Part shown: positions 42,004-63,632 of the stretch, one piece after another
How the letters are laid out: every line of letters starts with the position of its first letter
How positions within the stretch are numbered: position 1 is the first letter of the stretch
Origin: Candidatus Latescibacterota bacterium
GTDB taxonomy: Bacteria > Latescibacterota > UBA2968 > GCA-2709665
DNA length: 64,000 bases
Direction of reading: 5' to 3'
Assembly (NCBI GenBank): GCA_963667175.2
Contig: CAXXXF010000002.1
Span: forward strand, 224,001 to 288,000
Program-made: the position numbers and the translations under genes
The notes under the pieces: model-generated
Database searches by the model: none
Told to the model about the DNA's origin: nothing
What the model saw: the letters and a program-made list of their open reading frames with translations, nothing else

Positions 42004-42008
42004 GCACA

Positions 42009-42701
42009 GTGACCGATGTGACTTCGGTGGAAAGCGCTATCCTCGTCCTGCGAGTGGATGTCCCGATGATGGGTCTGCGCCCGATGTGGGCGCGGGAGTA
42101 CCAAGAGACCTACCCCGCGCCGCCGCCCTCTACAATCTACGGCATGTTGCTTTCACTCGTTGGCGTTGAACGCCATAGAAAAGACAGGCACGTCGGTTTA
42201 CGCATTGCGCTCGCCCTAGCCGAAAATACAAAGGAGTCACTTTGGCAAAGGCGAGAAAAGGGGCGCATTTTCCGCAAGTTTCGTCGGGTGGCGCAAGCTA
42301 AGAAAAACGCGGATCCGCTGGCCGACCGTCGTCCAGACTACCAAGAGTTATTGCTTGGCTTGGAGTTCTGGCTGTGGATTGACGACTCGCAGGCGAGTCA
42401 CCCGCTATGCGATGAAATCCGCAAGGCGCTAGACCCTGAAAAGCGCGACGAAATCGTCCGCCACGGCGCACTATGCCTCGGCGAGTCCTCGCACATGGTC
42501 AATGAAGTCACGAAAGATCGCCCACATGGAAAAGGGAGCTTTGTGGCCCCGTGCGAAAAGGGGTTTCTTTCCATGCCGGTCTGGAGCGATTACAAAGAGA
42601 ATCGGCCTACCGTGCTCAATTTCGAGATTCGCGAGCCGGAGGAATTGACTGACAACCCACCCCCCGACTGCTGGATCACCGTTGCTCCGCGTGACGGGTA
42701 A
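42009..42701 (+). CDS. cas5: Cas5 (DevS-like)
   Basis: AREYQETYPAPPPSTIYGMLLSLVG, PDYQELL, LCLGESSHMVN. Confidence 0.92.
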   Translation: MTDVTSVESAILVLRVDVPMMGLRPMWAREYQETYPAPPPSTIYGMLLSLVGVERHRKDRHVGLRIALALAENTKESLWQRREKGRIFRKFRRVAQAKKNADPLADRRPDYQELLLGLEFWLWIDDSQASHPLCDEIRKALDPEKRDEIVRHGALCLGESSHMVNEVTKDRPHGKGSFVAPCEKGFLSMPVWSDYKENRPTVLNFEIREPEELTDNPPPDCWITVAPRDG

Positions 42702-42705
42702 TTCT

Positions 42706-44376: not shown

Positions 44377-44657
44377 GCGAACGACACTGGTATCTCTTCA
44401 GTTACGATATCCGCGAACCCAAACGGTGGCGTCGTGTGCACAAGATTGTAAACGGATATGGGGAGCGGTTGCAGTATTCGGTATACCGATGTCACTTGAC
44501 GCGGGCACAGATGGAACAGGCGAGGCATGAGCTGGAGAAGGTGATGGGGGAAGACGACGACCTACTTGTGATTCGACTCTCCCATCGCTGCAAGATCGTC
44601 GAGCGGACCGAAAGCAGAACGTGGACGGAGCCGCCGCCCAGGTTCGATATCCTTTAG
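44373..44657 (+). CDS. cas2: Cas2
   Basis: YLFSYDIREPKRWR, GERLQYSVY. Confidence 0.95.
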   Translation: MSERHWYLFSYDIREPKRWRRVHKIVNGYGERLQYSVYRCHLTRAQMEQARHELEKVMGEDDDLLVIRLSHRCKIVERTESRTWTEPPPRFDIL

Positions 44658-44908
44658 TGTGCTTACTGGACGACAAGCACGTAAGGATGGACAAGAAGCC
44701 AATCGCGAGTAGCTCTGATATCACCCGTAATTTCAGTATGTTAGACAGGAAAACTCTACGATGAGATACTTGTCGCTTGTAAGTACCGAAAATATCACGA
44801 TTTATCTTGCAGGGAGGTCTAACGACATCGGAACGCAGGACATATACAGGGTAGTGCAGGACATGTCGGCGCATTTGTCCCTTAGAAACAATCAGTTACA
44901 CGGGTACT
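44658..44908 (+). promoter_or_regulatory. CRISPR leader
   Basis: AT-richer non-coding stretch between cas2 and the first repeat. Confidence 0.7.
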
Positions 44909-46961
44909 ACGCAGAAATCTTTGATGCCGAAAGGCGTTGAGCACTTCGAATGAGAATGACTCCACACGAAAAGATCATGAACGCAGAAATCTTTGATGCC
45001 GAAAGGCGTTGAGCACAAAGAAACATCGAAGACGTCCAGGCAAATGACCTTGACGCAGAAATCTTTGATGCCGAAAGGCGTTGAGCACGGGAATGTCATT
45101 GTGGATCGGCAGTGGTTGGTGTATACGCAGAAATCTTTGATGCCGAAAGGCGTTGAGCACTCGATCGGTTCGCCGTCGATCCAGATCCGGCGCGCCAGAC
45201 GCAGAAATCTTTGATGCCGAAAGGCGTTGAGCACCCGTTGCCTGTTCCACTGCGCTCCCCTTTCGCTGCCTACGCAGAAATCTTTGATGCCGAAAGGCGT
45301 TGAGCACCGCTCAGGAAGTCGATTGGCAACGTCGTAGAAGCACGCAGAAATCTTTGATGCCGAAAGGCGTTGAGCACAAGAACATCCAGTCCGCGTATCA
45401 GCACGATACATACGCAGAAATCTTTGATGCCGAAAGGCGTTGAGCACTTGCGCCTCTGCTGGTCCAGCCGCTGGCTCGTGAAGCACGCAGAAATCTTTGA
45501 TGCCGAAAGGCGTTGAGCACCTGGTTGCGCGTTCGCGGATCACACGCCAGGCCCGCCGACGCAGAAATCTTTGATGCCGAAAGGCGTTGAGCACATGGGA
45601 GTGGGCAAGAGGACAGCCCACCCCCATCACACGCAGAAATCTTTGATGCCGAAAGGCGTTGAGCACATACCGAGGGCATTCGCCGCTTCTCTTCCTGCGA
45701 GGTTACGCAGAAATCTTTGATGCCGAAAGGCGTTGAGCACAAGACATCTGGAATTTGAGCGGATTGACGCGGGCGACGCAGAAATCTTTGATGCCGAAAG
45801 GCGTTGAGCACTATCAGACGACGGCCGGCTCGAACACCTTTCCGAACGACGCAGAAATCTTTGATGCCGAAAGGCGTTGAGCACAGGAAAAATCAAATGT
45901 CTTTGTAATGAATGGTGGATACGCAGAAATCTTTGATGCCGAAAGGCGTTGAGCACTATCAGGAATTCAAGGAGCGATTTCTTGTCAATCAACGCAGAAA
46001 TCTTTGATGCCGAAAGGCGTTGAGCACAATGATGCAACACCCGGCGCAACAGGGGGAAGTTGCAAACGCAGAAATCTTTGATGCCGAAAGGCGTTGAGCA
46101 CATCATGGTTGTTCCCCTTGTATGTGTTTGTTGCGCTACGCAGAAATCTTTGATGCCGAAAGGCGTTGAGCACGCTTTAGCTGATGGTTCCCGTAGATGG
46201 GTAGAGATTGACGCAGAAATCTTTGATGCCGAAAGGCGTTGAGCACTCCGATTGCCAGTAGACAATCGACGGCGTTTCGATAACGCAGAAATCTTTGATG
46301 CCGAAAGGCGTTGAGCACTCACAATCGCGGCTGCCGGCGAATCGATCGGCTCGACGCAGAAATCTTTGATGCCGAAAGGCGTTGAGCACGTTAAGAGTTC
46401 GCGGAAAGCCTGCTTGGCCGCCACGCAGAAATCTTTGATGCCGAAAGGCGTTGAGCACCCGCGATCAACCTGGAAAACCGGCTGCGGGTCGACGCAGAAA
46501 TCTTTGATGCCGAAAGGCGTTGAGCACTTAGTTGTGTGGCAAGGGAATAAGCCCAAGCCCGAACGCAGAAATCTTTGATGCCGAAAGGCGTTGAGCACAT
46601 TGATTGCGAATTTCCACTTGATGCCCGCATCTTCGACGCAGAAATCTTTGATGCCGAAAGGCGTTGAGCACGTAAACAGCCTGGAAGATCATCCAGAATC
46701 AATACACTACGCAGAAATCTTTGATGCCGAAAGGCGTTGAGCACTCCGATTGCCAGTAGACAATCGACGGCGTTTCGATAACGCAGAAATCTTTGATGCC
46801 GAAAGGCGTTGAGCACGACCGCCCGCAGTTGCAGGACGGTGTCGCGCAGATCGACGCAGAAATCTTTGATGCCGAAAGGCGTTGAGCACAACCCACATCG
46901 CACACCATCTGTGCCTTTGTTGCCGACGCAGAAATCTTTGATGCCGAAAGGCGTTGAGCAC
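44909..46961 (+). CRISPR. CRISPR array, 29 repeats (ACGCAGAAATCTTTGATGCCGAAAGGCGTTGAGCAC, 36 nt) and 28 spacers of 33-38 nt
   Basis: Counted by eye; hairpin GCC-GAAA-GGC; orientation from the leader side and 3' GTTGAGCAC end. Confidence 0.97.
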
Positions 46962-46998
46962 CCAATGACCATGGCTTGTTCGATAGTGGGGTGAAATC

Positions 46999-47562
46999 TT
47001 GACGCAAAAGGAAATCATCGCACGTCGCCCAAGGCTCAAAGTTCCGGATGAATTTCAGGATGAATGGGTGACTTTGGCCGACGTCGGGTTCGACGGGGAG
47101 TGGGTATCGCCGATTCAGAAGAAATCGAACAGCAGGAAAGGTCCGGTACTCGTAGCGAAACACTGGTTCGATGCGGAATCCGTGAATCTGAATCGAAAAG
47201 TCCTCGAGTGCTTCGGGTATCTGCCCGGCAATCCGTTCAACCGCGCACTTGACCGGGTTCTTGCGTCTGTCGGTCTTGAGCGTGGGGACGTCTACATCAC
47301 GCAGGCGTGCCACTTCCTGCCGAAGAACGACAAGCGGAAGAGAGTGCCGTCCAAATTGATGAAGCTTTCCGTGGAGACGGTGACCCGCCATGAAGTTGAG
47401 GGTCGGCGGGTGATCGCCTTGGGTGGCGAGGCACAGATGGCCTTGACGCGTGCCAATATTGGCTTCCTGCCGTGCCCGCATCCGAGTTCATCGGTCGCTG
47501 GACGATTCGAGGAATTGGCAGAAGCGCTTCGCGATTCGGCGCCGTTCGTCAGCGCCAGTTAG
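46999..47562 (+). CDS. Uracil-DNA glycosylase superfamily-like protein (paralogue of 52777-53316)
   Basis: VYITQA.HF, VIALGGEA, CPHPS motifs. Confidence 0.65.
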   Translation: MTQKEIIARRPRLKVPDEFQDEWVTLADVGFDGEWVSPIQKKSNSRKGPVLVAKHWFDAESVNLNRKVLECFGYLPGNPFNRALDRVLASVGLERGDVYITQACHFLPKNDKRKRVPSKLMKLSVETVTRHEVEGRRVIALGGEAQMALTRANIGFLPCPHPSSSVAGRFEELAEALRDSAPFVSAS

Positions 47563-47564
47563 TG

Positions 47565-47777
47565 ATCTCCCCTCGCTTCGGCGGCCTGCCTGCGCAGCGG
47601 TGTGCGCTGCAGGCAGGGGGGAGCGGATTGAAACCTCTCCCCGATCCCGTCCTACGGATGCCGGTTGTCGTATCTCCCCTCGCTTCGGCGGCGGGAGCGG
47701 ATTGAAACTTGTGTGAGATGTCCTCAGGACAGTCGAGGCAGGATCTCCCCTCGCTACGGCGGGGGGAGCGGAATTCC
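47565..47777 (+). CRISPR. Degenerate mini-array of a second repeat family (ATCTCCCCTCGCTTCGGCGGnGGAGCGGATTGAAAC): 3 repeats, 2 spacers
   Basis: Repeats at 47565-47634 (interrupted), 47672-47708 and 47743-about 47777; spacers 37 and 34 nt. Confidence 0.8.
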
Positions 47778-47804
47778 TTTAAAGGAACAAGAGGGAGTCA
47801 ACAC

Positions 47805-48740
47805 ATTAGGCGAATCGTACTCAGCCGCAAGGGATTCGACTCGAGCCGCAAGGGATTGGAATCGCCGAACGGCGGCGTGCCCAGTCCCATTTTCCCGGAC
47901 GGTCGAATCCTTTCCTTGCCTATTCCGACTCCCAGGCGCTATCCTCAATCTTCGAAACGGTTTGACGACATTGTGTGGGATGGTAGATCGCTATCTCCGC
48001 TCGTGGAGAGTCTTAGTAAAGTTAGAGGTGAGTGTTGGTGCCACTTGGATCCGGATATTCGAGCAGATGCGATCCAACGGCAACCTGGATGGCGGCCGGC
48101 GTTCGGACAGGTTGATGGATCTCAATCCCAATTGGCCAATCAGGAAGTCTCTCAGGGCGACCTGTTCCTGTTTTTTGGTACATTCCGGCGTGTCGAAGAT
48201 GATGGCAGTGGAGGTTGGCGTTACGTCAGAACCGCACCGAAAGTCCATATGCTTTTTGGCTGGTTACAAGTGCAGGAGGTTTTGTCGTTTCGTACTAATG
48301 CCGACTACGACCGGGCACTTTGCAAGTATCCGTGGCTGTCGGACCACCCACATCTCCACAGATCATTTACGGAACGTGCCCACAGTCTTCGCAAGCTTCC
48401 GAACAACACCGTCTACCTGTCGAACCCGAAGCTCAATATACGGGGAATAGACCTACCGGGAGGTGGCGTATTTCAGAGTGAACACGGCCGTATCGTATTG
48501 ACTGATCCAGAGGAGGTTGGAAAAGGAGCACCCTGTCGGCCTTCGTACTGGAGGCTGCCCGAGTGGTTCTGGCCGGACAGCGATTATCGCCGGTTACGAC
48601 GCAAAGTCATGTTGCGGCGGCGCGACACGGAGTGGATCCATGTCGCCTCGGGAGGTAGGGGACAGGAGTTCGTAGTTGACGTACACGACGTCTCAGATGC
48701 CGCAAACAAGTGGGTGCGCAATCTGTTCGAAGATGCTTGA
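47805..48740 (+). CDS. Nmad3 (nucleotide modification-associated domain 3)-like protein; expected ATG reads AGG at 47808
   Basis: IVLSRKGFDS...GGVPSPIFPDG..LSLPIP, CHLDPD, FGQ, GDLFLFFG.F, HPH, GQEFV. Confidence 0.75.
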   Translation: MRRIVLSRKGFDSSRKGLESPNGGVPSPIFPDGRILSLPIPTPRRYPQSSKRFDDIVWDGRSLSPLVESLSKVRGECWCHLDPDIRADAIQRQPGWRPAFGQVDGSQSQLANQEVSQGDLFLFFGTFRRVEDDGSGGWRYVRTAPKVHMLFGWLQVQEVLSFRTNADYDRALCKYPWLSDHPHLHRSFTERAHSLRKLPNNTVYLSNPKLNIRGIDLPGGGVFQSEHGRIVLTDPEEVGKGAPCRPSYWRLPEWFWPDSDYRRLRRKVMLRRRDTEWIHVASGGRGQEFVVDVHDVSDAANKWVRNLFEDA

Positions 48741-48767
48741 GCGGCACCAAGAGTCCGAGAGGTCGCG

Positions 48768-48803
48768 GCGCAGAAATCTTTGATGCCGAAAGGCGTTGAG
48801 CAC
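48768..48803 (+). CRISPR. Solitary repeat of the main array family (35/36 identical)
   Basis: gcgcagaaatctttgatgccgaaaggcgttgagcac, 27 bp after the Nmad3 stop. Confidence 0.92.
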
Positions 48804-49182
48804 GTGATAAAAGAGGCGAGTTGCGATTCTTGGCGATGCAGGCGTCTGGAATTTGAGGGATTGTAGTGGGTGATAGATCGTCTTTCCTGTGGAGTTTACC
48901 GTTCAATAAGAATCAGTCGATCCACGCAATGCAGTCTTAGTGATAAGGGGGGAGCCAATGTCGACACACAAGCTGGAGATCGTACAGGTACTGGAAAAGT
49001 ATCCTGACGGGGCGCTGGTCGAGGAGTTGATGAAAGAAAGGCGGCGGATAAGGAAGTCCGAGACCGGATTGACGCTGCTCGCGTTTTTGCCCGCCAGTGG
49101 GACATCGTACGGGTAGACCATTGTACTTTTCAACTGATGCTGTGAATTGGCAGGTGCGTCACCGTTAGGTAACCATGCACAG

Positions 49183-49286
49183 GTATTGTGCCCACTAAGG
49201 AGCGGTTTGAAATATCAAAACTCCAATGCAGGTGTTCAGTGACCCGTGGGAAATCGAGAATCTTCCATCAGAACAAGGATTGAAAA
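49183..49286 (+). CRISPR. Hybrid repeat-spacer-repeat unit
   Basis: ...taaggagcggtttgaaat, 36 nt, then gaaatcgagaatcttccatcagaacaaggattgaaaa. Confidence 0.65.
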
Positions 49287-49503
49287 TACCCGTGGACAGG
49301 GTCTATTGATTCACTACAGAAGGCTTAGAAAGTACGAACGGTCTGGTTCCTGACGACGCTTTATGCTTAAAGTGCGGAGCAATCGGTTACGGTCAGTGCA
49401 CATGCCCTACACCGGCCCATTGCTGCGACTGAACGGCTCCAGGGGATCTACATTGCACCTGTGCCGTAGGACAGGGACCCGTGTGGTCAGACGAGGAGTA
49501 AAT

Positions 49504-50094
49504 ATGCTGATTTTAATTCTGCTCTCCGTGGGCTTAGCCCAGGCGGAGCTGCCAGAAGGTTTTTCTACCTGGGACTTGTCGATCAAAAAGGATCCCATCG
49601 AAGAAACGACAACTATACGGCTGACCCTGCATGGTGAGGCATTGGTGTATGTTAAGGGTCAGCGATATGGTAGAGAGTATGATCATTTTGGGGCGATCTC
49701 CTTTAGTTGTCATTTGTCCAGATATGCAAGCACAGTAGAAATGGGTGTATTGACCCATAAATCGTTCATATATGGTGTAGAGGAAGGGGACGCGGTGGAG
49801 CCAGCGTTCATGATTATGCGATATGATAGTAAAACGCCGAAGAAGATATTCGGATGGAAAACGACAAGGGTGAAAGGTCGGGATCTGCTTCTACCACCTG
49901 AGGGATTTATGAACGCATTCGTAGATACATTACGTAAAGGCGGACATTATGAATTGTTGTTAAGATCGGAATCGCCGTTTACTGGTAAGCGATGGACAAT
50001 GAAATTTAACGTCACTCACAGTAGACGAAACGTGATGAACTTTCTTAGAAAGTGTAAGGCTCACCGGAGGGATGATCACGGCTACAACTACTGA
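49504..50094 (+). CDS. Secreted hypothetical protein
   Basis: GAGGAG RBS, signal peptide ending AQA, lower GC than the core genes. Confidence 0.65.
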   Translation: MLILILLSVGLAQAELPEGFSTWDLSIKKDPIEETTTIRLTLHGEALVYVKGQRYGREYDHFGAISFSCHLSRYASTVEMGVLTHKSFIYGVEEGDAVEPAFMIMRYDSKTPKKIFGWKTTRVKGRDLLLPPEGFMNAFVDTLRKGGHYELLLRSESPFTGKRWTMKFNVTHSRRNVMNFLRKCKAHRRDDHGYNY

Positions 50095-50188
50095 GCATTT
50101 GAATAGCGCCATATTTCTTCCTGCTCAAGCAGTTGAAGATATAGAGAAGGATGATTGGTATCGCGGACACCTGCGAACGCGCACGTAA

Positions 50189-50225
50189 CCCGTTGAGAAT
50201 CTTCCATCGGAACAAGGGTAGAAAC
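50189..50225 (+). CRISPR. Solitary degenerate repeat, CTTCCATCAGAACAAGGATTGA family
   Basis: cccgttgagaatcttccatcggaacaagggtagaaac. Confidence 0.65.
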
Positions 50226-50280
50226 TTGCCCAAACCAGAAAACGGGCGACAAAGTAGCTGATGGGGCTCTCTACTTAGAT

Positions 50281-50598
50281 TTGGACGGTGGAGAATTAGG
50301 CAAAACGGTCTTGTCCGTCGAAGGCGGAAACATCCGACCGTCGGATTTACAAGACCTGCAAGGGGTGTTACATTCCGATCCAGATGCCCGCCTTTCCGGT
50401 TTCCTTTCGTTGAATGAACCCACAAAGGCAATGGGAAAGGCTGTCAGTTCAGATGGACAATGGAGTTACAAGGGCGAGACCTACGACAAAATTCAGTTGC
50501 TCACCGTTCGTGACGTGGTCGACGGGAAGCGGTTGTTCCAGACGCCTACCAGCCTGAAATACAAGGATTACCACTTGCAGGAAACGATCCGGTTTTAG
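50281..50598 (+). pseudogene. Fragment of an Mrr-like restriction endonuclease domain, of the kind fused C-terminally to DNA methyltransferases
   Basis: SV.GG.IRP.D..DL.GVL...GFLSL..PT..M...Y.KIQLLTV; N-terminus absent. Confidence 0.55.
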
Positions 50599-50990
50599 AT
50601 CTCCAATTCGGGAAGAAGACATATGCGACCGAATCTCGCGCAGGTCAAGTCGTTTATTCTATCCGAGTTTCCTGAGTTACTGCCAGATGGCCATTGAAGA
50701 CGGATGGTCTTTTTTCTATAAAGAGATAAGAAAAGGACGCGACTCCACCCGAATCGCCCGCGTCAAGCAGGCGAGCTCAAACAGTAAAATAGATTTCAAA
50801 CCTGCTGTTACTGCCAGAATAACGGGAGATGAACGATTGAGGGTTGAGATAACAACTGACTGGGAGAACGAGATTCGCAACGTAACCGAACGGGAGTTGG
50901 AACTTTGGGAGTGCCATTTCGGGAAACAGGATTGGCAATTTTAAACCCAAAACGCACCAGCCCGTCTCTTAATTTCGTCCTGCGCGCGTG

Positions 50991-51092
50991 ATTTCCCCTC
51001 GCTTCGGCGGGGCACGAGGGATTGAAGCTAGTCCACGGGGGCGATCCGTAAGGGTATCGGGTCGCCCCCTACGTGGTGCGTGGGCTGAAAAA
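50991..51092 (+). CRISPR. Hybrid unit: family-2 repeat, 32-nt spacer, type I-C-like repeat
   Basis: atttcccctcgcttcggcggggcacgagggattgaagc (50991-51028); gtcgccccctacgtggtgcgtgggctgaaa (51061-51090). Confidence 0.65.
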
Positions 51093-51153
51093 GCGCCGCC
51101 ACGCTTATTTACAGGTAACCCGTTTCCACTCCATACTTCGACAAGGAGGTCCG

Positions 51154-51741
51154 ATGGACACGAGTGAATTGTACGAATTTAGCCAGGGTCTGGAGTCGCT
51201 GATCCGAAAACCGACCGATCTGCGACCCTTCGTATGTGAGGGTTCGCCTCTTGCATGTGATGCGTTCCTCGTGGGTATCAATCCCGCGAGCGAAATGTCG
51301 GATGACTTCTGGGATTTCTGGTCGGACAGTTATGGATTCGACAAGAGCGCGTGGTTTGAGAAGTACAAGGAGGAGCGAAGAACTCGCCCGCTGAAACTCG
51401 GAAGGAAGAGAAGGAATGAAGTAAGCAACACACGCAGAATCATCGAGGAGGTCGTTTTGGGCGCCAATCCCGTCAAATGTCTTGAGACGAACATATACGC
51501 GAAAGCGACGAAACAGGCATCGGACCTGGACGAGCAAAACAGAATCACGGCGCCCTTCGACTATCTCTTGCGCGAGATAGCGCCGAAGTTGGTGATTGCC
51601 CACGGCAAGGACGCTGCCGAGTACCTGCAAGCGCAGGACCTACCGTGCAAACTCAGGTGTGTCAAACATTTCCGACTCTGGTCCAAGCAGAACGCGCGAG
51701 ATCTAGGGTTGAGTATTCGCAGGTATTGTGAGGGAGAGTAG
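51154..51741 (+). CDS. Uracil-DNA glycosylase superfamily-like protein
   Basis: FLVGINPA, ETNIY, PKLVIAHGK, KHF; AAGGAGG RBS. Confidence 0.65.
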   Translation: MDTSELYEFSQGLESLIRKPTDLRPFVCEGSPLACDAFLVGINPASEMSDDFWDFWSDSYGFDKSAWFEKYKEERRTRPLKLGRKRRNEVSNTRRIIEEVVLGANPVKCLETNIYAKATKQASDLDEQNRITAPFDYLLREIAPKLVIAHGKDAAEYLQAQDLPCKLRCVKHFRLWSKQNARDLGLSIRRYCEGE

Positions 51742-51887
51742 CGGGACCGCGCGTGAAAACCCGCCTCGGGTTCACAGCCCATTCGCTTCGCCGGTTGACG
51801 TCCAAAGTCGCTAGGCGAGCCACGCCCGCTGAGATTCCTGCATAAGTAACGAGGTTTGACCGGAACGAAGGATGAAGGGGTCTATGG

Positions 51888-52751
51888 ATGATCAAGATAG
51901 TCAGTTGGAACATCGACAACCGAATGCAGCCGTGGTGCGAACTGGTGCGGATGGCGCAGGACGGCGAGGCCGACCTGGCGCTCCTGCAGGAAGCGGGTGG
52001 CCCGCCAGGCGACCTTGTACATCTGGTCGAATACGATGATGCGGTGTTTTGGAACCGCCAACTTTACGACCGATGGCCACTGGTCGTGAAGTTGTCCGAT
52101 CGAATAGCAGTCGAACATTACCGACAGGTGCCGCCGATCAGCGAACTTGGTATGAGCGACATTGGCGTGAGCGGTATCGGGACCATCGCCGCCGCGAGGG
52201 TGATCCCTTACGAAAGTGAAGATGAGGCCTTCGTCGCTGTCTCCATGTACGCGCGCTGGCTGAAGCCGCATCCGTCTACGGATAGCCCATGGAAAGTCGG
52301 TTACTCGGATGCGTCGGCACATCGAGTTATTTCGGACCTATCGGCTTTCATCGGTCACACCAACCCGTCCAGACACAGGATTCTGGCGGCAGGCGACCTG
52401 AACATGTTTTACGGGGCAACCGGCACGAGACTGTCACTGCCGGAACGTGAGCGCACGGTCTGGGATCGAATGAAATCGCTCGGACTGGAATTTTTGGGAC
52501 CGCAGGTTCCTTGCGGACGACCCGCACCGACTGCGCCGGACGACGTACCTTGCGATACGAAGAATGTACCGACGTACTACAAGGTTGGAGAATGCCCGGA
52601 AAAGGCGACGAATCAATTGGACTACGCATTTGCGTCGCACGGCTTCCACGAAAGGGTTTCAGTACGGGCGATGAACGAGATTTGCGAATGGGGATGCAGC
52701 GACCACTGCAGGCTGATCATTGAGGTAAAGACGAACGCCGATAGCGCCTGA
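51888..52751 (+). CDS. Endonuclease/exonuclease/phosphatase (EEP) family protein
   Basis: IVSWNI, LLQEA, AGDLN, LDYAFAS, SDH. Confidence 0.88.
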   Translation: MIKIVSWNIDNRMQPWCELVRMAQDGEADLALLQEAGGPPGDLVHLVEYDDAVFWNRQLYDRWPLVVKLSDRIAVEHYRQVPPISELGMSDIGVSGIGTIAAARVIPYESEDEAFVAVSMYARWLKPHPSTDSPWKVGYSDASAHRVISDLSAFIGHTNPSRHRILAAGDLNMFYGATGTRLSLPERERTVWDRMKSLGLEFLGPQVPCGRPAPTAPDDVPCDTKNVPTYYKVGECPEKATNQLDYAFASHGFHERVSVRAMNEICEWGCSDHCRLIIEVKTNADSA

Positions 52752-52776
52752 CAGAGTTGCGCCACGAGGTGAAACC

Positions 52777-53316
52777 ATGGAACGAGAGGACATAATCGAA
52801 CGTCGCCGAAGCCTTCAAGTTCCGGACGAATTTCAGGATGAATGGATGACATTAGCCGACGTCGGGTTCGACGGTGAGTGGGTATCGCCAATTCAGAAGA
52901 TATCGAACAGCATGAGGGGTCCGGTACTCGTAGCAAAGCACTGGCTCGACGCCGAATCCGTGGATCTGAATCGGGAAGTCCTCGAATGCTTGGGATATTT
53001 GCCTGGCAACCGATTCAATCAGTCTCTTAATCGGGCCCTGGCAAATGTCGGGAAAGCACGTGGGGACGTCTACATTACACAGGCGTGCCACTTCCTACCG
53101 AAGGACGACAAGCGGAAGCGAGTGCCGGCCGAATTGATGAAACTTTCCGTGAAGGAGGTGACCCGCTATGAAGTTGAGGGTCGAAGGGTCATTGCGTTGG
53201 GTGGTGAGGCTCAGTTGGCCCTGGAGCGTTTCGGTATTGATTTTCTGCCGTGCGCGCATCCGAGTTCATCGGTCACTGGACGATTCGAGGAATTGGCAGA
53301 TGCGATTCGAGATTAG
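52777..53316 (+). CDS. UDG superfamily-like protein (paralogue of 46999-47562)
   Basis: Highly similar translation; VIALGGEA, CAHPS. Confidence 0.65.
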   Translation: MEREDIIERRRSLQVPDEFQDEWMTLADVGFDGEWVSPIQKISNSMRGPVLVAKHWLDAESVDLNREVLECLGYLPGNRFNQSLNRALANVGKARGDVYITQACHFLPKDDKRKRVPAELMKLSVKEVTRYEVEGRRVIALGGEAQLALERFGIDFLPCAHPSSSVTGRFEELADAIRD

Positions 53317-53341
53317 GCGCCGTTCGTGGGCTCTATCCCAA

Positions 53342-53451
53342 ATCTCCTCTCGCTTCAGCGGTGGGAACGGATTGAAACGCGTCGCGCCGCTCGCAGATGG
53401 AGTGGATGGCGGCGCCCAGCGAGAGCCTTCCATCAGAACAAGGATTGAGAC
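53342..53451 (+). CRISPR. Three abutting repeats of different families
   Basis: 53342-53378 family 2; 53381-53408 I-C-like gtcgcgccgctcgcagatggagtggat; 53415-53451 cccagcgagagccttccatcagaacaaggattgagac. Confidence 0.7.
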
Positions 53452-53456
53452 TGCTT

Positions 53457-53633
53457 ATGCCGCAAGATATCCGAAATCGACAGGAACCGGCCGCCTTCCA
53501 GGTCTGGCATCCGGATGGGACGCCCTTTTCCGATGATGACTATCGAAAGGCCGGAATGCCTGTACCAACCCCCGAGCAGATCGCTCACTGGGCTGAGATG
53601 GACCGAAGTTTCGCCGATCCGGATACTGACTGA
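53457..53633 (+). CDS. Small hypothetical protein (WHPDGTP domain)
   Basis: Conserved paralogue at 55643-55837 and a fused copy at about 57105-57200. Confidence 0.6.
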   Translation: MPQDIRNRQEPAAFQVWHPDGTPFSDDDYRKAGMPVPTPEQIAHWAEMDRSFADPDTD

Positions 53634-53653
53634 GGCTTGATCGGATACATCCG

Positions 53654-53689
53654 CCCAGAGAAATCGTCCATCAAAGAATGGATTGAAGC
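53654..53689 (+). CRISPR. Solitary degenerate repeat overlapping the methyltransferase start
   Basis: cccagagaaatcgtccatcaaagaatggattgaagc aligns with 53415-53451. Confidence 0.55.
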
Positions 53690-54522
53690 TGCCCAACGGG
53701 CTGCGTCCGGACGGAGGACCTGAACTTGTGACTGGCGCCAACTACGACACTCCCTGGTGGCCGCTTATATACGACCAGTGGAACGAGCGGGGCGATAGGC
53801 AGCAGACGCACCAGCGCGAGTTCCAATTCTACAGCATGCAGCTCACCGGAGAGGCGGGTCCGATCCTCGAAACGGCTTGCGGCACTGGTTCGATTCTGCT
53901 TCGCCTTTGGCGCCACGGCGTTGACATAAGGGGTTTCGATTGCGCCGCAGGGATGCTGGCCGTTCTGCGGCGCAAGGCAGCGGCTCTGGGGCTGGGCGAT
54001 ATCGACCGCCGCGTTGGCTGTCAAGACCTCGTTGACTTCTGCTACGACCAGTCCTTTGCAGCCATTCTGATTCCGGCCAGTTCGTTCATGCTCTTACCCA
54101 CACAGTCGGCCCAAATCACCTGTCTCGAACGCATTCGCGCGCATATGGCACCTGGCGGGCGGCTACTGATGAATTTCTACATCCCGTCGCTTGCCGACGA
54201 CCTGCTTGCCCACATCGCCCCGTCCCCGTCGCTGGAAACATTCGGCGAATTCATCCACCCCCAAACAGGCCGCCAAATCAGCGTCCGCTTCAAAAAGATC
54301 GTCGATCTGGGCGAGCAGACTGAGCACTACGAGTGGTTTTTTCTCTACGACGGAGAAACTGCAGCCGTGCCCATGACTGCGCGGTGGATCTACAAAGAAG
54401 AATTTCAGCTATTGCTGCGTCTGGCAGGATTTAGCCGCTGGCGGCTTTCTGGCACCCACGACGGCCAGCCGTACACAGGTTCAAAGGAGATTGGGACGAC
54501 GTACTGGGTCGTCGAACGCTGA
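53683..54522 (+). CDS. Class I SAM-dependent methyltransferase
   Basis: ILETACGTG, GFD...ML, HMAPGGRL. Confidence 0.85.
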   Translation: MKLPNGLRPDGGPELVTGANYDTPWWPLIYDQWNERGDRQQTHQREFQFYSMQLTGEAGPILETACGTGSILLRLWRHGVDIRGFDCAAGMLAVLRRKAAALGLGDIDRRVGCQDLVDFCYDQSFAAILIPASSFMLLPTQSAQITCLERIRAHMAPGGRLLMNFYIPSLADDLLAHIAPSPSLETFGEFIHPQTGRQISVRFKKIVDLGEQTEHYEWFFLYDGETAAVPMTARWIYKEEFQLLLRLAGFSRWRLSGTHDGQPYTGSKEIGTTYWVVER

Positions 54523-54851
54523 GCGGATCAGTACCTGCAAACGGTGGTGACCGTTTGGTAAGCTGGTTAGGGTCTGCCAGCACCGTTGGTTGAAAGACGA
54601 TAGGTATTGTTCGCTACTGCATCAGGGGATACTTCAAGGCGATTCAGTTCGCCACGGCGAGACACAATCGACTGGGTTCCCTGCCTGGCCAATGCGTGAT
54701 GGCGACCCGCCGGAAATCTGGTTTCAGCTGGACAAAGGACGACCTCTCCAACATGATCGACAAGACTTTGAAGTGGGACGTGGATTGAAGCTGCTGCGGG
54801 GTTTATCCCAGGGGACGGACTGTATCACGCGACACAGGAGGAGATGACCCA

Positions 54852-55538
54852 ATGTGCGGTCGATTTACCCAGATGATGTCCTGGGGTGAGCTCCATTGGC
54901 TTTACAGCCTGTCCGAACACTCGGAATCGCTGGAGTTGCAATCCCGCTATAACGGCGCGCCGACCCAGGATTTCGCGGTCTGCCGCCTGGACGGAAACGG
55001 CAACCGGGAGATCGACAGGCTGCAATGGGGTCTGGTACCCGCGTGGTCCAAAGACGTCAGAATCGGCGCCCGCATGATCAACGCACGGGCCGAAAGCGTA
55101 CACGAGAAACCGGCATTCGGCGCCGCCTTTCGGGCGCGCCGGTGCCTGGTGCCGGCCGACGGGTGGTTCGAGTGGCAAGCAGCAGGGAGCGCCAGACAGC
55201 CCTACTTCCTGGCGCTCGCGGACGGGTCGACGCTGTCGTTCGCCGCGCTGTGGGAACGCTGGGATAGAGGCGGCGCCGCCCTGGAGTCATTTACCATCAT
55301 CACCACGGCCGCCGACGAAGCGCTTTCCAACGTCTACCATCGCCAGCCTGCCGTCATCAATCCCGAACACTTCTCCGTCTGGCTCGACAACGAATCATCC
55401 GCGGCGACGTTGCTGGATCTGGTTCGCTATCCTCGCGCGGGACCGTACGAAATACGCGCCATCGGCGCTCGCGTAAACAATGTCCGAAACGACGATCCGG
55501 ACGTTCTCCTGCCCACGTCCCAGCAGCGCCTGTTCTAA
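54852..55538 (+). CDS. SRAP (YedK/HMCES) abasic-site-protecting autopeptidase
   Basis: N-terminal MCGRF, YN.APTQ, INARAES, RCLVPADGWFEW, HRQP.I. Confidence 0.93.
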   Translation: MCGRFTQMMSWGELHWLYSLSEHSESLELQSRYNGAPTQDFAVCRLDGNGNREIDRLQWGLVPAWSKDVRIGARMINARAESVHEKPAFGAAFRARRCLVPADGWFEWQAAGSARQPYFLALADGSTLSFAALWERWDRGGAALESFTIITTAADEALSNVYHRQPAVINPEHFSVWLDNESSAATLLDLVRYPRAGPYEIRAIGARVNNVRNDDPDVLLPTSQQRLF

Positions 55539-55544
55539 GTCCAC

Positions 55545-55637
55545 ACGGGAGAGCGGATTGAAACGACAAAACACCAGTGCCGGTGGTCAGTGACCCGTGG
55601 CCCAGTGAGAGTCTTCCATCAGAAAAAGGATTGAGAC
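55545..55637 (+). CRISPR. Hybrid repeat-spacer-repeat unit (paralogue of 49183-49286)
   Basis: acgggagagcggattgaaac, 36 nt, then cccagtgagagtcttccatcagaaaaaggattgagac. Confidence 0.7.
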
Positions 55638-55642
55638 TGCCT

Positions 55643-55837
55643 ATGCCGCAAGATATCAGAAATCGCCAGGAGCCCGCCGCCTTCCAGTGCTGGCATCCGG
55701 ACGGTACCCCTTACTCGCCGGCAGACTATCGAAAGGCCGGGATGCCTGTCCCGACCCCCGAGCAGATCGCCCACTGGGCTGAGATGGACCGAATATTCGC
55801 CGATCCGGTGAGAATTGTCAATCAGAACAAGAAGTGA
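55643..55837 (+). CDS. Small hypothetical protein (WHPDGTP domain), second copy
   Basis: MPQDIRNRQEPAAFQCWHPDGTP...DYRKAGMPVPTPEQIAHW. Confidence 0.6.
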   Translation: MPQDIRNRQEPAAFQCWHPDGTPYSPADYRKAGMPVPTPEQIAHWAEMDRIFADPVRIVNQNKK

Positions 55838-55876
55838 AACAGCGAATCCGTCCCAATCCTCGCCTGGACGATCGAT

Positions 55877-55912
55877 GTCTCCCCTCGCTTCGGCCGGGGA
55901 GCGGATTGAAAC
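55877..55912 (+). CRISPR. Solitary family-2 repeat
   Basis: gtctcccctcgcttcggccggggagcggattgaaac. Confidence 0.8.
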
Positions 55913-55991
55913 GTCGCCGCAATGTCCCCGCGCCCTTGTGAAAAGGCGAAGTCGACGGGGCGGTACGTGGCGCCAATGGAGGTGAATAACA

Positions 55992-57257
55992 ATGCTATTC
56001 AGACTTACTCGAGATGGAGATAAGAACGGTTTTCAGCCATATGTCGAAACGTCAGCATCAGACTTGCAACTCACCGAAAAGAACCTGGAAACCTGGATGG
56101 CGCTGCACCCTGAGTTGCTTTTTGGAAGCGAGCAAGTCCTTGTGATCAGCCAGTCAGTCGCAGGTCAGAGCATGGGCGACATTCTGGCGTTAGACGCCGA
56201 TGGATGTTTAGTGATCGTCGAGATTAAGCGGGACTGGTCCGATAGAGCGACGGTTGGCCAAATCCTGGAATATGCGGCCGAAATGACCGGGAAATGTTAT
56301 GAGGACCTGGAGAAACTGCATCACAGCTACTGGATCAAACAACACTCGAATTGTAATTATGCATCCTTGCTGACGCGGTTTCAAACCCTGACCGACAACC
56401 ACGAATGTGATGAGGACGATATTCCGAGACGTCAAAAAGGTCATCGAATTCTAGTCGTCGCACCGGCTGCTGACGAGGGCCTGATGAGGATTGTAGAGTG
56501 GCTTAGAGAGTATGGTGTGCCGATCAGCTTTGTGCCTTTCACGATCCATGCAGATACGGAAAGCAAAGACATCTTGCTGGAGCTAGAGCCGCTCCCCGAG
56601 GCTCAGTCGTTCGGAGAAATGGTAGACAGTCAGGAATGGCGTGGAGATTGGATCTTTAATACGAACGAAACTTACGCCCCAGGCGCATACCGAAAGATGT
56701 TTGATCAACGCGTAATTGCTATCCACGGATATGAGAGCGGTCCAGCCAATCTGACAGGTAGTGCCGAAGGGCAGCGGGTATTCGCTTATGTAAATCGCAA
56801 AGGTGTCCTGGCGGTGGGTCGTATCGTTAACGGCCAACCGGTTTCGGGGACAACCGTGTTTGGCGAGGAACGCGAGTTCCATGTGAAGGTCGTCTGGGAG
56901 ACAATCGTGGACGATGACAGGGGAATGACATTACGGGACGTCAGCGAAGAAAAAGGTTACAATCTCCCTGTTCGATGTGTCTTTGCTCGCATGAATCGTC
57001 CCGATGCCGCCGATTGGATCGCCGACGAACTGCAAAGCAGGATGGATAAACGTAATCCTGGACGTAGAGGCTCAAGATTCTCAGACCCTATCGTCGGCCG
57101 CGCCTGGCATGCCGACGGCACGCCTTTTGGTGAGGAAGACTACAGGAGAGCGGGCTTGTATGTCCCCACCGAGGAACAATTGGCCGCGTGGGAGAAGGCG
57201 GATGCCGAACGCGACGCGCTACCGCCCGGTGAGAATCTACCGCCAGAACAGGAATGA
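55992..57257 (+). CDS. NucS/DUF91-like PD-(D/E)XK endonuclease with putative EVE/PUA-like domain and C-terminal WHxDGTP domain
   Basis: EKNLE.W...P.L, DILALD..G.LVIVEIKR...VGQILEY; G.RVFAY...GVLAVG.I. Confidence 0.7.
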   Translation: MLFRLTRDGDKNGFQPYVETSASDLQLTEKNLETWMALHPELLFGSEQVLVISQSVAGQSMGDILALDADGCLVIVEIKRDWSDRATVGQILEYAAEMTGKCYEDLEKLHHSYWIKQHSNCNYASLLTRFQTLTDNHECDEDDIPRRQKGHRILVVAPAADEGLMRIVEWLREYGVPISFVPFTIHADTESKDILLELEPLPEAQSFGEMVDSQEWRGDWIFNTNETYAPGAYRKMFDQRVIAIHGYESGPANLTGSAEGQRVFAYVNRKGVLAVGRIVNGQPVSGTTVFGEEREFHVKVVWETIVDDDRGMTLRDVSEEKGYNLPVRCVFARMNRPDAADWIADELQSRMDKRNPGRRGSRFSDPIVGRAWHADGTPFGEEDYRRAGLYVPTEEQLAAWEKADAERDALPPGENLPPEQE

Positions 57258-57404
57258 AGCAGCAGTGGTCGGTGGTCCGTGTCAGTGACCAGTCCGAAAG
57301 CCGGATGATGTACGGGAAGGTGCATGCGCGCCTGCGGATGCCGGCTTCCAGCTCAATTCCGTGGGTCTTCAAAGCCGAAATGAATCCGGGGAGGCAGGGA
57401 AACC

Positions 57405-58277
57405 ATGAAAATCGTTTTCAGTCGCAAGGGATTCGACTCGACCCGCAGGAGATCTGAATCGCCGAACGGCGGCGTGCCCAGTCCCATCTTTCCGGACGGC
57501 GCCGCCCTGTCCCTGCCAATTCCGCAACACGGAAGTCGGACGCGCTACGGGGACGTACAGTGGCGCGGCGAGTCGATCGGTCCGATTGTGGAGTGCTTGA
57601 CTGAGGGTCGAGTGAAGCAAGGTGATTGTTGCCATCTCGACCCCGATCTGAACGCCGATGCCCTTGCGCGCTTGCCCGGATGGCGGCCGGCCTTCGGGCA
57701 GTCACAGGCCGCTCAGAGCCATCTGAAAAACGAGGGTGTCGAACCCGGGGACCTCTTTCTGTTCTTCGGCTGGTTCCGCGCCGTGGAACCCGGCAAAGGA
57801 GGCATGTGGCGGTACGTTTCAGACGCCCGGGACGTACACAGGCTGTTCGGTTGGCTCCAGGTTTCCGAGGTCGTGCCCGTCGGGGCGGATCTCGCCCGCG
57901 CCCGGTCCGAGCGGCCGTGGCTATCCAGGCATCCGCATCTGAATAGGGATAGGGACAACAACACGATCTACATCGCAAGGGAGAAACTTGACGTCGAGGG
58001 CGTGACTGCGCGGAGCGACGCAGGCCTGTTTTCCGGCAACGGCGACCGATTCACACTGACGGCGCCGGGTTCCAGGACCCGCTCCAATTGGCGGTTGCCT
58101 TGGTGGTTCTATCCCTCAAACGGTCGTCCAACGCTCAGCTACCACGGCAATGGGGATCGCTGGCAGCACGCGAAACCGTGGGTATACCTGGACACGGTCG
58201 GCATCGGGCAGGAGTTCGTGTTCGACGCCGGCGGGATCCCGGAAGCAAACGTCTGGTTGCGAGAACTGTTCAGGTGA
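57405..58277 (+). CDS. Nmad3-like protein
   Basis: MKIVFSRKGFDS, CHLDPD, GDLFLFFGWF, HPH, LSYH, GQEFV. Confidence 0.8.
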   Translation: MKIVFSRKGFDSTRRRSESPNGGVPSPIFPDGAALSLPIPQHGSRTRYGDVQWRGESIGPIVECLTEGRVKQGDCCHLDPDLNADALARLPGWRPAFGQSQAAQSHLKNEGVEPGDLFLFFGWFRAVEPGKGGMWRYVSDARDVHRLFGWLQVSEVVPVGADLARARSERPWLSRHPHLNRDRDNNTIYIAREKLDVEGVTARSDAGLFSGNGDRFTLTAPGSRTRSNWRLPWWFYPSNGRPTLSYHGNGDRWQHAKPWVYLDTVGIGQEFVFDAGGIPEANVWLRELFR

Positions 58278-58588
58278 AGGGTTGTGCCGAGTATCGGCAG
58301 ACGGAACAGAAAGGCATCGCTGGAAATCTCGGCGGGAGAACAGATATGCGGCGAAGCAACGAAAAGCGCAATCGTCTTGCTGCACTCGCCCGCCATCTCC
58401 GGGACAATGTTCCATCCGGATTCCGGGGGGCGGCGACTATCATTCGGGCGTTTATGAATGCGGATTCGTATCGCCGTATACAAAGTTGGCAGGCAATCTA
58501 CACGCATGTGTCGCAAATTGCGACACATGCCAGCACCTGCGTCGTTCGTTGGCGCATTCGCTGCCAACAAACAGGCCGCACGGTACCC

Positions 58589-58615
58589 GTAGGGGCGACC
58601 GGCCGGTCGCCCCTA
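58589..58615. repeat. REP-like palindrome GTAGGGGCGACCGGCCGGTCGCCCCTAC (also about 59515-59539 and 62201-62228)
   Basis: GTAG-started hairpin overlapping the 3' end of antitoxin genes or remnants. Confidence 0.7.
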
Positions 58616-58721
58616 CGCTGCCAGAGGCTCGATGGAAAGCCTAAATCCGATCCGCCGGAGGACCTCAGGCGTGAGGTCGCGGCCGGCATGATCGCGGCAG
58701 GGGAGATGTTTGAATCGAAAT

Positions 58722-59232: not shown

Positions 59233-59535
59233 GAACAACTCCTTTTCGATTCTTCACGTGCCTATTCCGGTACCAATATGCTCTTGACGTTGTAGCGGTA
59301 GCTATTGATGCTCTGGGCAGCTATCGACCGGTCCTTCAGTCCGTCGAACAAGATATAGCCAACATTCCGGCGAAAAGCAACTGCTTTGACACGACAATGC
59401 GTGCAAAACCAAAATCTCCTCGGCGCATGAAGTACTTCACGGTAGAAATCGTTGTGGTTGCCTGAAAGTTTACGTACCGCGCGTGAATCGGACTGGCGCC
59501 CGCGGCGCCGGTCCGGCGCGAACGGCCGGTCGCCC

Positions 59536-59846
59536 CTACTGCTCTGCCAGGGGCTCGATGGAAAGCCTGAATCCGAGGCTGTTCAGGATCTTCTCCATCG
59601 TGTCAAGGCGAGGATTTCCGTCTCCCGAGAGCGTCCTGTACAGGTGAGCCCGGTTTAGATTCGCCTGCCGCGCCAACTTTCCCAGCCCGCCTCTTGCCGT
59701 CGCAACGTCCTTCAGAGCCAGCAGAAGGACGGTTCGATCCCTGTCTCTGGCGTATTCCTCCAGCGCGACCTCGAGGTAGGCGCGAGCGCGGTCCGGATCA
59801 CTGAGGAATTCGAAATGGTGTTTTTCGAACGATACGGAGGCTTCAT
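59536..59846 (-). pseudogene. Addiction-module antidote (HTH) with a 1-nt deletion right after the ATG
   Basis: AYL..ALEE...LALKDVA.ARGG...LA...L.R.HLY..LS..GNPRL; ATGAA versus ATGGAA in the paralogue at 62536. Confidence 0.6.
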
Positions 59847-62173: not shown

Positions 62174-62224
62174 CGGGTTGTGCCCTGGCCCCGGGTACCT
62201 GTAGGGGCGACCGGCCGGTCGCCC

Positions 62225-62536
62225 CTACAGCTCTGCCAGTGGCTCGATGGATAGCCTGAAGCCCAGGCTGTTCAGGATCTTCTCCATCGTGTCCAGGCGA
62301 GGATTTCCGTCTCCGGAAAGCGTCTTATACACGTGGGCACGGTTCAGGTTTGCCTTCCGCGCCAATTCTCCCAGCCCGCCTTTTGCGGTCGCGACGTCCT
62401 TGAGCGCAAGCAGAAAGGCCGACCTGTCGTGATCCCTGGCGTATTCCTCCAGCGCGGCCTCGAGATAGGTGCGAGCGCGGTCCGGATCACTGAGGAATTC
62501 GAAATGGTGTTTTTCAAATGGGACCGATGGTTCCAT
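62225..62536 (-). CDS. Addiction-module antidote (HTH), no toxin partner
   Basis: MEPSVPFEKHHFEFL...LSGDGNPRLDT. Confidence 0.75.
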   Translation of the reverse strand: MEPSVPFEKHHFEFLSDPDRARTYLEAALEEYARDHDRSAFLLALKDVATAKGGLGELARKANLNRAHVYKTLSGDGNPRLDTMEKILNSLGFRLSIEPLAEL

Positions 62537-63429: not shown

Positions 63430-63632
63430 ATCGATAGCCAAGAGCACATTACGACGTATGCAGCCCTTGTTCTGTCGAAATTTACTTTCATCAGAATAAG
63501 GGTTATTTTCTGCTTGGGAATAAACTTTCCCCTATTCACGCTCTCCAATCCCCTGACGATTACCCCTATTTTGACTTCCAATCAAACCGTGGCTCTTCAA
63601 AGCCGAATTGAATCCGGGGAGGCAGGGAAACC

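Follow-up and report, generated by a model that had tools for sequence, protein, structure and literature searches.

CRISPR arrays are regarded as non-coding. In engineered expression cassettes, Cas6/Csy4 sites have been used to insulate 5′ untranslated regions (UTRs); the repeat is placed directly 5′ of the coding sequence, cleavage sets the 5′ end of the mRNA, and the ribosome-binding site (RBS) lies 3′ of the cut. Among natural systems, a cr-like RNA of CreTA guides Cascade to repress a promoter, and cr-like mini-arrays regulate genes adjacent to them (10.1101/2023.03.03.530964). The mini-array survey described there took only repeats that were 15–60 bp apart and did not overlap open reading frames (ORFs). 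RNA anti-CRISPRs (Racr) are solitary repeats on phages and plasmids, often beside anti-CRISPR genes, that act as RNA decoys (PMC10651486). As described in these two reports, neither CreTA with its cr-like mini-arrays nor Racr places a protein-coding gene in step with its repeats. Here we describe a 64-kb stretch of the genome of a Candidatus Latescibacterota bacterium (G000:C2:224001-288000; hereafter the window) in which genes for a small protein with the motif WHxDGTP, called WH below, occupy spacer positions between copies of a CRISPR repeat. We lean, by a little, towards the view that WH is a promoter-less gene in a spacer position of a former type I-B array, that the repeat serves as its 5′ UTR, and that its expression would be gated by Cas6b where this enzyme is present.

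The two stand-alone WH genes of the window (WH1 and WH2; Table 1) each follow a 37-nt unstructured repeat, the B repeat (CCCGGYGAGAATCTTCCATCAGAACAAGGATTGA(A/G)AC). As had been proposed from the sequence alone, each ORF starts 5 nt past the repeat. The repeat before WH1 ends in ATTGAGAC (53444–53451) and is followed by tgctt and the ATG at 53457, and that before WH2 ends in ATTGAGAC (55630–55637) and is followed by tgcct and the ATG at 55643. The ORFs encode 58 and 64 aa and stop at 53631–53633 and 55835–55837, respectively, and the units were rightly described as near-identical, with 87% identity across 209 nt (53414–53622 versus 55600–55808). The genome has one more stand-alone copy, 4.2 kb outside the window (C2:292191-292361), and in this third case the ATG follows a B repeat by 2 nt. 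The string GGATTGARRC is present 10 times in the window, versus 0.78 expected, and 10 occurrences were reached in none of 100 shuffles. The WH motif also recurs, as the sequence-only reading had noticed, at the C-terminus of the NucS-like ORF at 55992–57257 (WHADGTPF from ∼57105; 42% identity, 21 invariant columns). Because a degenerate B repeat also follows WH1, WH2 and this fusion on the 3′ side, each ORF fills a spacer position. WH2 reads into the next repeat, and the stop codon of both WH2 and the fusion is a TGA within the repeat tail.

The same reading had named a lack of repeats upstream of homologues as its refutation, and the search for them showed that most homologues within the genus are linked to the repeat. 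In 14 genomes, 36 frames yielded 33 WH genes (three genes are frameshifted), and 24 of the 33 have a B repeat with a projected end 2–5 nt before the in-frame ATG. One more WH gene directly abuts the last repeat of an I-C-like array, a different CRISPR repeat type, and two or three have a degenerate B repeat only. The gap in the 24 linked units is 4 nt in 13, 5 nt in eight, 3 nt in two and 2 nt in one, and the next repeat begins 0–1 nt past the stop codon in at least eight units. WH genes also form tandem runs. The longest, in L011, has five members, one of them truncated; the run in L015 has four, that in L007 three and that in L008 two. In one congener (G054) a WH gene stands between a B repeat and a three-repeat stretch of normal spacing. 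Gaps in the B array of that genome were considered as further cassette holders and rejected; they contain an IS21-like transposase pair (judged by eye) and other ORFs.

Within the phylum, 14 of 168 genomes were positive: this one, 12 of the 14 others in the genus, one of two in the sister genus and none of the 147 that belong to 13 other families. We considered and discarded a distribution of the repeat-linked form across phyla, since the 'Gemmatimonadota' metagenome-assembled genomes in question are sequence-identical to genomes of the window's own genus (L009/G052; L011/G053). A Tectimicrobiota-labelled contig was likewise set aside, being near-identical to a contig in G062.

The substitution pattern indicates that the WH ORFs are genuine genes under purifying selection. 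Values of dN/dS among the three copies of this genome are 0.14, 0.17 and 0.18 (dS 0.64–0.75), and the family median is 0.31 (114 usable of 171 pairs). Selection is uneven along the protein, with a pN/pS of 0.20 in the core versus 0.72 in the C-terminal tail (12 pairs). The core reads W-H-x-D-G-T-P-[FY]-x3-[DE]-Y-x2-A-G-x2-V-P-T-x-E-Q-x-A-x-W. A profile search gave 38 clusters (90% identity) at E≤0.01 from 42 candidates, and an exhaustive search of the 50% library gave 74 matches at E≤0.001, of which 47 are single-stretch proteins of 44–464 aa. We put aside 27 long multi-stretch matches as motif look-alikes, three of the four that were scanned being FG-GAP repeat proteins. A repeated 'AWQNDGTPF' strand in FG-GAP beta-propeller proteins (P0039, P0051, P0099, P0102) resembles the WH core; the strand common to both is limited to W-x-N-D-G-T-P-F, and the likeness is taken as motif convergence. 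No match to the WH family was found in Pfam (E≤10), NCBIfam, PADLOC or PHROGs, and the ESM Atlas gave no usable match. An AlphaFold2 model (mean predicted local distance difference test score 72.9) has one beta bridge and two helices, and its best Foldseek match in the PDB had an E-value of only 2.8. With its core conserved and its tail evolving fast, WH is probably a small module that binds other proteins.

The repeat upstream of WH has diverged less than the fourfold-degenerate sites of the gene. For 20 units (190 pairs), the p-distance was 0.240 in the 37-nt repeat versus 0.605 at fourfold-degenerate sites and 0.40 in the whole coding sequence, and the repeat was more similar than the fourfold sites in 187 of the 190 pairs. 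This similarity has a sharp edge, as the 23 nt 5′ of the repeat are at a p-distance of 0.73. Between the repeat and the ATG, length is kept and sequence is variable. The idea that the repeat has been a decayed relic throughout its history is thus rejected for the deep history (0.24 versus 0.61), but not for the recent history of genomes without Cas6b.

We could rule out that the B repeat is the repeat of the resident I-MYXAN array of the window; it is a different repeat, an orphan here, that belongs to a type I-B system. A congener (G001, the same as G057) has a B repeat array with 64 exact matches at a ∼74-nt period, directly downstream of cas6b-cas8b-cas7-cas5-cas3-cas1-cas2-cas4 (at L026: Cas6b_N and Cas6b_C, Cas7 Cst2/DevR, Cas5b, Cas3, Cas1, Cas2 and Cas4). 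G054 has the same cas gene order. B arrays with Cas6b are also present in G052 and G054; B matches number 35–82 in G052, G054 and G062, the 82 of G062 occurring without a Cas6b_C match. We conclude that the B repeat is a genuine type I-B repeat in these congeners, in an orientation that makes ATTGAAAC the 5′ handle of the CRISPR RNA (crRNA). The repeat had no match in Rfam at E≤0.1. Regular arrays are confined to congeners, and this genome has five good solitary copies on C2 and one on C3; the latter (C3:320279-320314) is well preserved and is followed by an Nmad3 C-terminal fragment.

No Cas6b was found in this genome, which is 95% complete, with the congener Cas6b protein or with Pfam Cas6b_C, Cas6_C or RAMPs. 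Two CRISPR-Cas loci were found in it, one of the I-MYXAN type in the window and one of type I-G on C13, and no I-B operon was found. Across the genus (this genome and 14 others surveyed), Cas6b_C is present in 3 of the 13 genomes that carry WH. A GAGAC variant of the repeat tail was considered as an adaptation to the resident Cmx6 and rejected, as the only other congener with Cmx6 has GAAAC.

How might the repeat act as a leader? The WH ORFs point in the same direction as the cas genes, the array and the repeats, and promoter- and terminator-like sites are at chance level in a scan of 44600–58400. For these reasons WH would lack a promoter of its own and be transcribed together with the array and the cassette island. 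The repeat and the 4–5-nt gap would form the entire leader and would supply its only Shine-Dalgarno (SD)-like element, AAGGA. This string lies inside the repeat (53440–53444; 55626–55630), 11–12 nt from the ATG in WH units, and is the sole SD-like string upstream, in agreement with the sequence-only reading. Predicted folding of the repeat with the ORF start is weaker than that of shuffles (z +0.5 to +1.6).

In type I-B systems the crRNA has a 5′ handle of 8 nt (PMC6546412). The earlier suggestion that a Cas6 cut would remove the SD therefore survives in its geometry, because AAGGA is 5′ of the site at which type I-B repeats are canonically cut, 8 nt before their end (PMC6546412). It is weakened for this genome in that no cognate Cas6b was found, and translation that depends on Cas status is thus possible only in relatives or through a putative cross-processing by Cmx6. 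Where present, Cas6b would cut between AAGG and AUUGAAAC and part AAGGA from the ORF, and the cut would leave a 12–13-nt leader that starts with the crRNA 5′ handle, to which Cas5/Cas7 bind. In Cas6b-bearing cells, the WH protein would then be made mainly from transcript that escapes Cas6b and Cascade, as a Cas-gated small protein. In this genome the gate would be absent unless Cmx6 cross-reacts, and the three copies would be ungated. The near-fixed 4–5-nt gap is suboptimal for an SD, and we infer that it fits a constraint from the cut site and handle better than one from SD spacing. A bolder extension, to which we give little credence, is that in this lineage arrays also serve as expression platforms for protein 'spacers', with the RBS severed by Cas6b and the start codon covered by Cascade; the protein would be an alarm of CRISPR failure (anti-CRISPR attack or cas loss), and the repeats would be recombination joints that shuffle defence cassettes between array subtypes.

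Several observations weigh against a Cas6b-gated WH gene. Gating cannot be the present role in most carriers, only 3 of 13 having Cas6b_C. The repeat-linked form is confined to one GTDB genus and one neighbouring genus, and the genome counts come from kin and hence are not independent. Distant homologues occur without the repeat in Chloroflexota, where they are often longer or fused, and in one Binatia prophage. AAGGA in this genome is mostly 6–10 nt from the ATG; spacings of 11–12 nt are rarer, at the edge of usage, yet above background. Transcription, processing and translation of WH units are all inferred. In addition, in the five least-diverged of 11 pairs between genomes without Cas6b, a post hoc and small selection, the repeat had 20 differences in 185 positions versus 17 in 132 for fourfold sites, and the repeat as a whole is not visibly constrained in those pairs. 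The contrast with the deep comparison is read as long-term constraint on the repeat for as long as a type I-B system was there, followed by relaxation once it had been lost. This genome would be such a case, and the repeats of its three copies appear to be drifting.

These points bear on the strongest of the other explanations, a hitch-hiking relic, which we regard as possible if somewhat unlikely. According to it, a gene was trapped once between repeats in the ancestor of the genus and multiplied by unequal recombination, the repeats staying alike through functional or homogenised arrays, with no regulatory coupling. Such a relic would be expected to show what is seen here: the linked form has a limited range, the repeat decays in a neutral-like way in recent Cas6b-less pairs, and distant homologues work without repeats. 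So are the window repeats 3′ of the ORFs, which are already degenerate, and the cas module at the head of the locus, which varies by congener (I-B, I-C-like or I-MYXAN). However, a relic does not readily explain why the gap is held at 4–5 nt in 21 of 24 units despite its variable sequence, why there is no alternative ribosome-binding or promoter-like site between the repeat and the ATG, or how the layout has outlasted saturation at fourfold sites with the repeat at 0.24.

An explanation that we consider unlikely is that WH inhibits, adapts or senses a defence enzyme encoded next to it (the PDC-S11 nuclease or ZacAB) by binding to it, with stand-alone copies acting in trans. WH2 is 155 nt 5′ of the NucS-like gene, which is itself fused to a WH module here. 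The NucS-like ORF is a candidate defence nuclease of the PD-(D/E)XK NucS type (PADLOC PDC-S11, E 1.5e-29, residues 28–285), and its NucS_C matches in Pfam and NCBIfam are below the cut-offs. In L009, L010, L011 and L015, WH genes directly precede ZacA/ZacB, and in the same four loci the ATG of ZacA (DUF6361) is 1 nt after a degenerate B repeat. Other fused forms (P0054 and P0058, with helix-turn-helix-like C-termini, and P0043) and the tandem, diversified paralogues with a fast-evolving tail also fit a binding partner. On the other hand, neighbours vary between loci, and the WH tail is present in none of the 120 nuclease homologues listed (253–402 aa, covering query residues 1 to ∼352), which weakens the nuclease regulator that had been offered as a candidate role. 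The closest of these homologues (87% identity, 351 aa) ends in ...ELQRR where the WH Met begins, and Met351 of the fusion aligns with Met1 of the stand-alone protein P0028 (77% identity, 52 aa). Because the listed homologues end at ∼351 and Met351 matches a stand-alone start, the fusion looks specific to this lineage, the nuclease frame having run on into the following unit once its stop codon and the repeat were lost. A role of WH as regulator or adaptor is a live guess, and an anti-defence role, suggested by the prophage copy, is likewise.

The latter could take the form of an anti-CRISPR or anti-defence gene that came from a mobile element, its small inhibitor protein having entered the array together with a solitary repeat by recombination with the array's repeats; we hold this to be quite unlikely. 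A small unannotated protein beside a repeat copy does resemble the anti-CRISPR gene context in which RNA anti-CRISPRs are often reported (PMC10651486), and one subfamily (P0032) is inserted in a Binatia prophage, where a 74-aa homologue lies on the opposite strand between the head-morphogenesis and scaffold genes, with a portal gene beyond (L014 5965–6189). However, there was no WH relative among 393 pattern-matching stretches in IMG/VR and no PHROGs family. The units of the genus are chromosomal, at one conserved locus, where they run in the direction of the array and have defence-type genes, but neither integrase nor phage genes, as neighbours, and they persist in genomes without the target I-B system. 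Finally, a CRISPR-guard toxin, a protein analogue of CreT silenced by Cas6b/Cascade and released upon cas loss or inhibition so as to kill the cell or arrest it, would suit a gene inside the array with its SD-like element 5′ of the predicted cut and its start codon in the Cascade-covered part of the crRNA, but it is very improbable and is disfavoured here as one of the candidate roles first proposed, a lethal toxin being unlikely because most carriers lack Cas6b (13 genomes of the genus keep WH and three have Cas6b_C; this genome keeps three intact copies with no Cas6b found), the linker 'spacers' being unrelated to a toxin promoter, and up to five WH genes in a row being unlike an addiction toxin.

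The setting of the WH genes is consistent with a reworked array (Table 1). Two further CRISPR-type repeats, A and B, are dispersed through the island downstream of the resident array, the A repeat being a 37-nt hairpin repeat with the 3′ end GGATTGAAAC that forms one three-repeat mini-array and occurs in single copies. The degenerate repeat at 57225–57260 and the next 145 nt have a counterpart in a congener, where a B array closes with a matching last repeat and trailer and Nmad3 again comes next; the window thus holds remains of a B array with genes in spacer positions. A conserved element of ∼145 nt lies between a terminal B-like repeat and each Nmad3 (57260–57404 and 63490–63632; 1464–1790 and 6224–6455 in L007) and also follows the array of 64 repeats in the congener. 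It may belong to the array, as its trailer, or to Nmad3, as a structured leader.

Table 1. Repeats, genes and other features at the WH locus (window positions; E-values from nhmmer where given)
Feature	Position	Strand	Match or remark
Resident type I-B/MYXAN cas operon, complete	36238–44657	+	Pfam, NCBIfam
Resident CRISPR array, 29 repeats ending ...GGCGTTGAGCAC	44908–46961	+	transcription towards cassettes
A-type mini-array (ATCTCCCCTCGCTTCGGCGGGGGGAGCGGATTGAAAC), 3 repeats and 2 spacers	47563–47780	+	weak Rfam CRISPR-DR9 match
Orphan resident-type repeat, 3′ of two gene cassettes	48767–48803	+	
B repeat copy B1, no flush ORF after it	49250–49286	+	nhmmer E 1e-8
B repeat copy B2	50189–50225	+	nhmmer E 4.8e-9
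A-type repeat, 3′ of UDG-like gene 52777–53316	53342–53378	+	nhmmer E 4.7e-4
36-nt spacer-like linker, A repeat to B repeat	53379–53414	+	
B-type repeat, proposed 5′ UTR of WH1	53415–53451	+	nhmmer E 1.1e-9
WHxDGTP small protein gene 1 (WH1), 58 aa	53457–53633	+	
Degenerate B repeat ending GGATTGAAGC, 20 nt past WH1 stop	53654–53689	+	nhmmer weak, E 17
A-type repeat, 3′ part only, after SRAP gene 54852–55538	55548–55564	+	
36-nt linker	55565–55600	+	similar to post-repeat linkers/trailers in congeners
B-type repeat, proposed 5′ UTR of WH2	55601–55637	+	nhmmer E 7.8e-10
WHxDGTP small protein gene 2 (WH2), 64 aa	55643–55837	+	
Degenerate B repeat overlapping WH2 3′ end	55805–55840	+	nhmmer E 0.074
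A-type repeat, 5′ of NucS-like gene	55876–55912	+	nhmmer E 7.8e-3
NucS-like/PADLOC PDC-S11 nuclease (residues 1–350), read through into WH module	55992–57257	+	
WH module of fusion	57042–57257	+	
Degenerate terminal B repeat, source of fusion's TGA stop	57225–57260	+	nhmmer E 1.2
Conserved element 5′ of Nmad3	57260–57404	+	matches element after last repeat of congener's B array

The resident operon encodes Cas6/Cmx6, Cas3, Cas8a1/Cmx1, Cas7 DevR, Cas5/Cmx5, Cas4-Cas1 and Cas2, and its array gave CRISPR-DR33-like matches in Rfam with scores below the gathering threshold. Upstream of cas6 are two tandem 446-aa ORFs on the minus strand, 1650 nt apart (32805–34145 and 34455–35795), the first of which is an IS110-family transposase (Pfam). 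Between the last resident repeat and its orphan copy (46962–48803), a UDG-like gene, the A mini-array and Nmad3 together resemble one 1.8-kb 'spacer'; the first A repeat there (47563–47634) has a palindromic insertion of ∼35 nt within its hairpin loop. Both UDG-like paralogues begin 1 nt after a GGTGAAA(C/T) repeat tail (46990–47001; 52765–52779). The larger ORFs of the island, up to ∼58300, are all on the plus strand and comprise UDG-like genes, Nmad3, EEP (endonuclease/exonuclease/phosphatase-family), methyltransferase, SRAP and NucS-like genes. The island ends at a lipoprotein gene on the minus strand, which is conserved and also marks the end of this region in congeners, where the cassette types (UDG-like, Nmad3, EEP, a ParA-like pair, a 182-aa Cys-rich protein and WH) come in varied order. 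A 28-nt perfect palindrome, GTAGGGGCGACCGGCCGGTCGCCCCTAC, recurs in the distal island (58589–58616, 62201–62228, 59515–59539), and a related one is found near C2:292600, after the third WH copy. On C13, a second CRISPR array with the type I-G adaptation gene Cas4g/Cas1g (C13:48240-49018; L027 12240–13018) has a repeat that ends, on the cas strand, in CATTGAAGC, the tail of several degenerate window repeats (51019, 53680, 54782).

Among known systems, CreTA shares with WH the degenerate repeats outside a regular array that are tied to an adjacent small gene at type I-B-like loci. In the window, each of the two WH genes is immediately preceded by an A repeat, then a linker of 36 nt, then a B repeat. 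The A-to-B spacing is exactly 36 nt at both WH-linked repeats, and the two linkers (53379–53414 and 55565–55600) are mutually unrelated in sequence. A CreTA-type match between spacer and promoter was not seen for either linker, although no systematic search for seeds or protospacer-adjacent motifs was made. The second linker resembles other post-repeat linkers, not a promoter, and we dropped the idea that the sequence following an A repeat guides Cascade to a promoter. WH also differs from CreTA in that the repeat is the gene's own leader, the ORF itself fills the spacer position (∼185–200 nt), and a conserved protein persists without Cascade; co-occurrence with Cascade genes of the CreTA type was not observed (13 WH genomes versus 3 with Cas6b_C in the genus). 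Racr, in the account cited above, shares the single repeat copies away from a regular array; in contrast, WH units are chromosomal and at the array's own locus, with repeats flanking a protein gene on both sides.

We found no paper on protein genes in spacer position, although supplements might list cases, and the repeat-linked WH layout was not found in print and is so far confined to one genus and one neighbouring genus. The mini-array survey could not detect this layout because it was limited to repeats 15–60 bp apart and off ORFs, a blind spot through which surveys so restricted miss such units. WH is a protein under purifying selection whose genes keep in step with the repeats and would use the repeat as a leader. 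If the coupling to Cas6b is not real, the locus would be a well-documented case of genes trapped and multiplied by array recombination. The island also resembles integrons, in which promoter-less, co-oriented genes alternate with a recurring, recombination-prone repeat behind a common upstream promoter and cassette order varies. However, the repeats of the WH island are CRISPR repeats by sequence and context, not attC structures, and no IntI or other integrase was found among the ORFs scanned, no search having been aimed at integrases. If the coupling is real, it would forge a new link between a gene and the state of CRISPR-Cas, would set a protein beside the guards and regulators of CRISPR loci known so far, which are RNA-based, and would make the WH units a natural counterpart of engineered Cas6-insulated cassettes, from which they would differ in having the SD-like element 5′ of the predicted cut.

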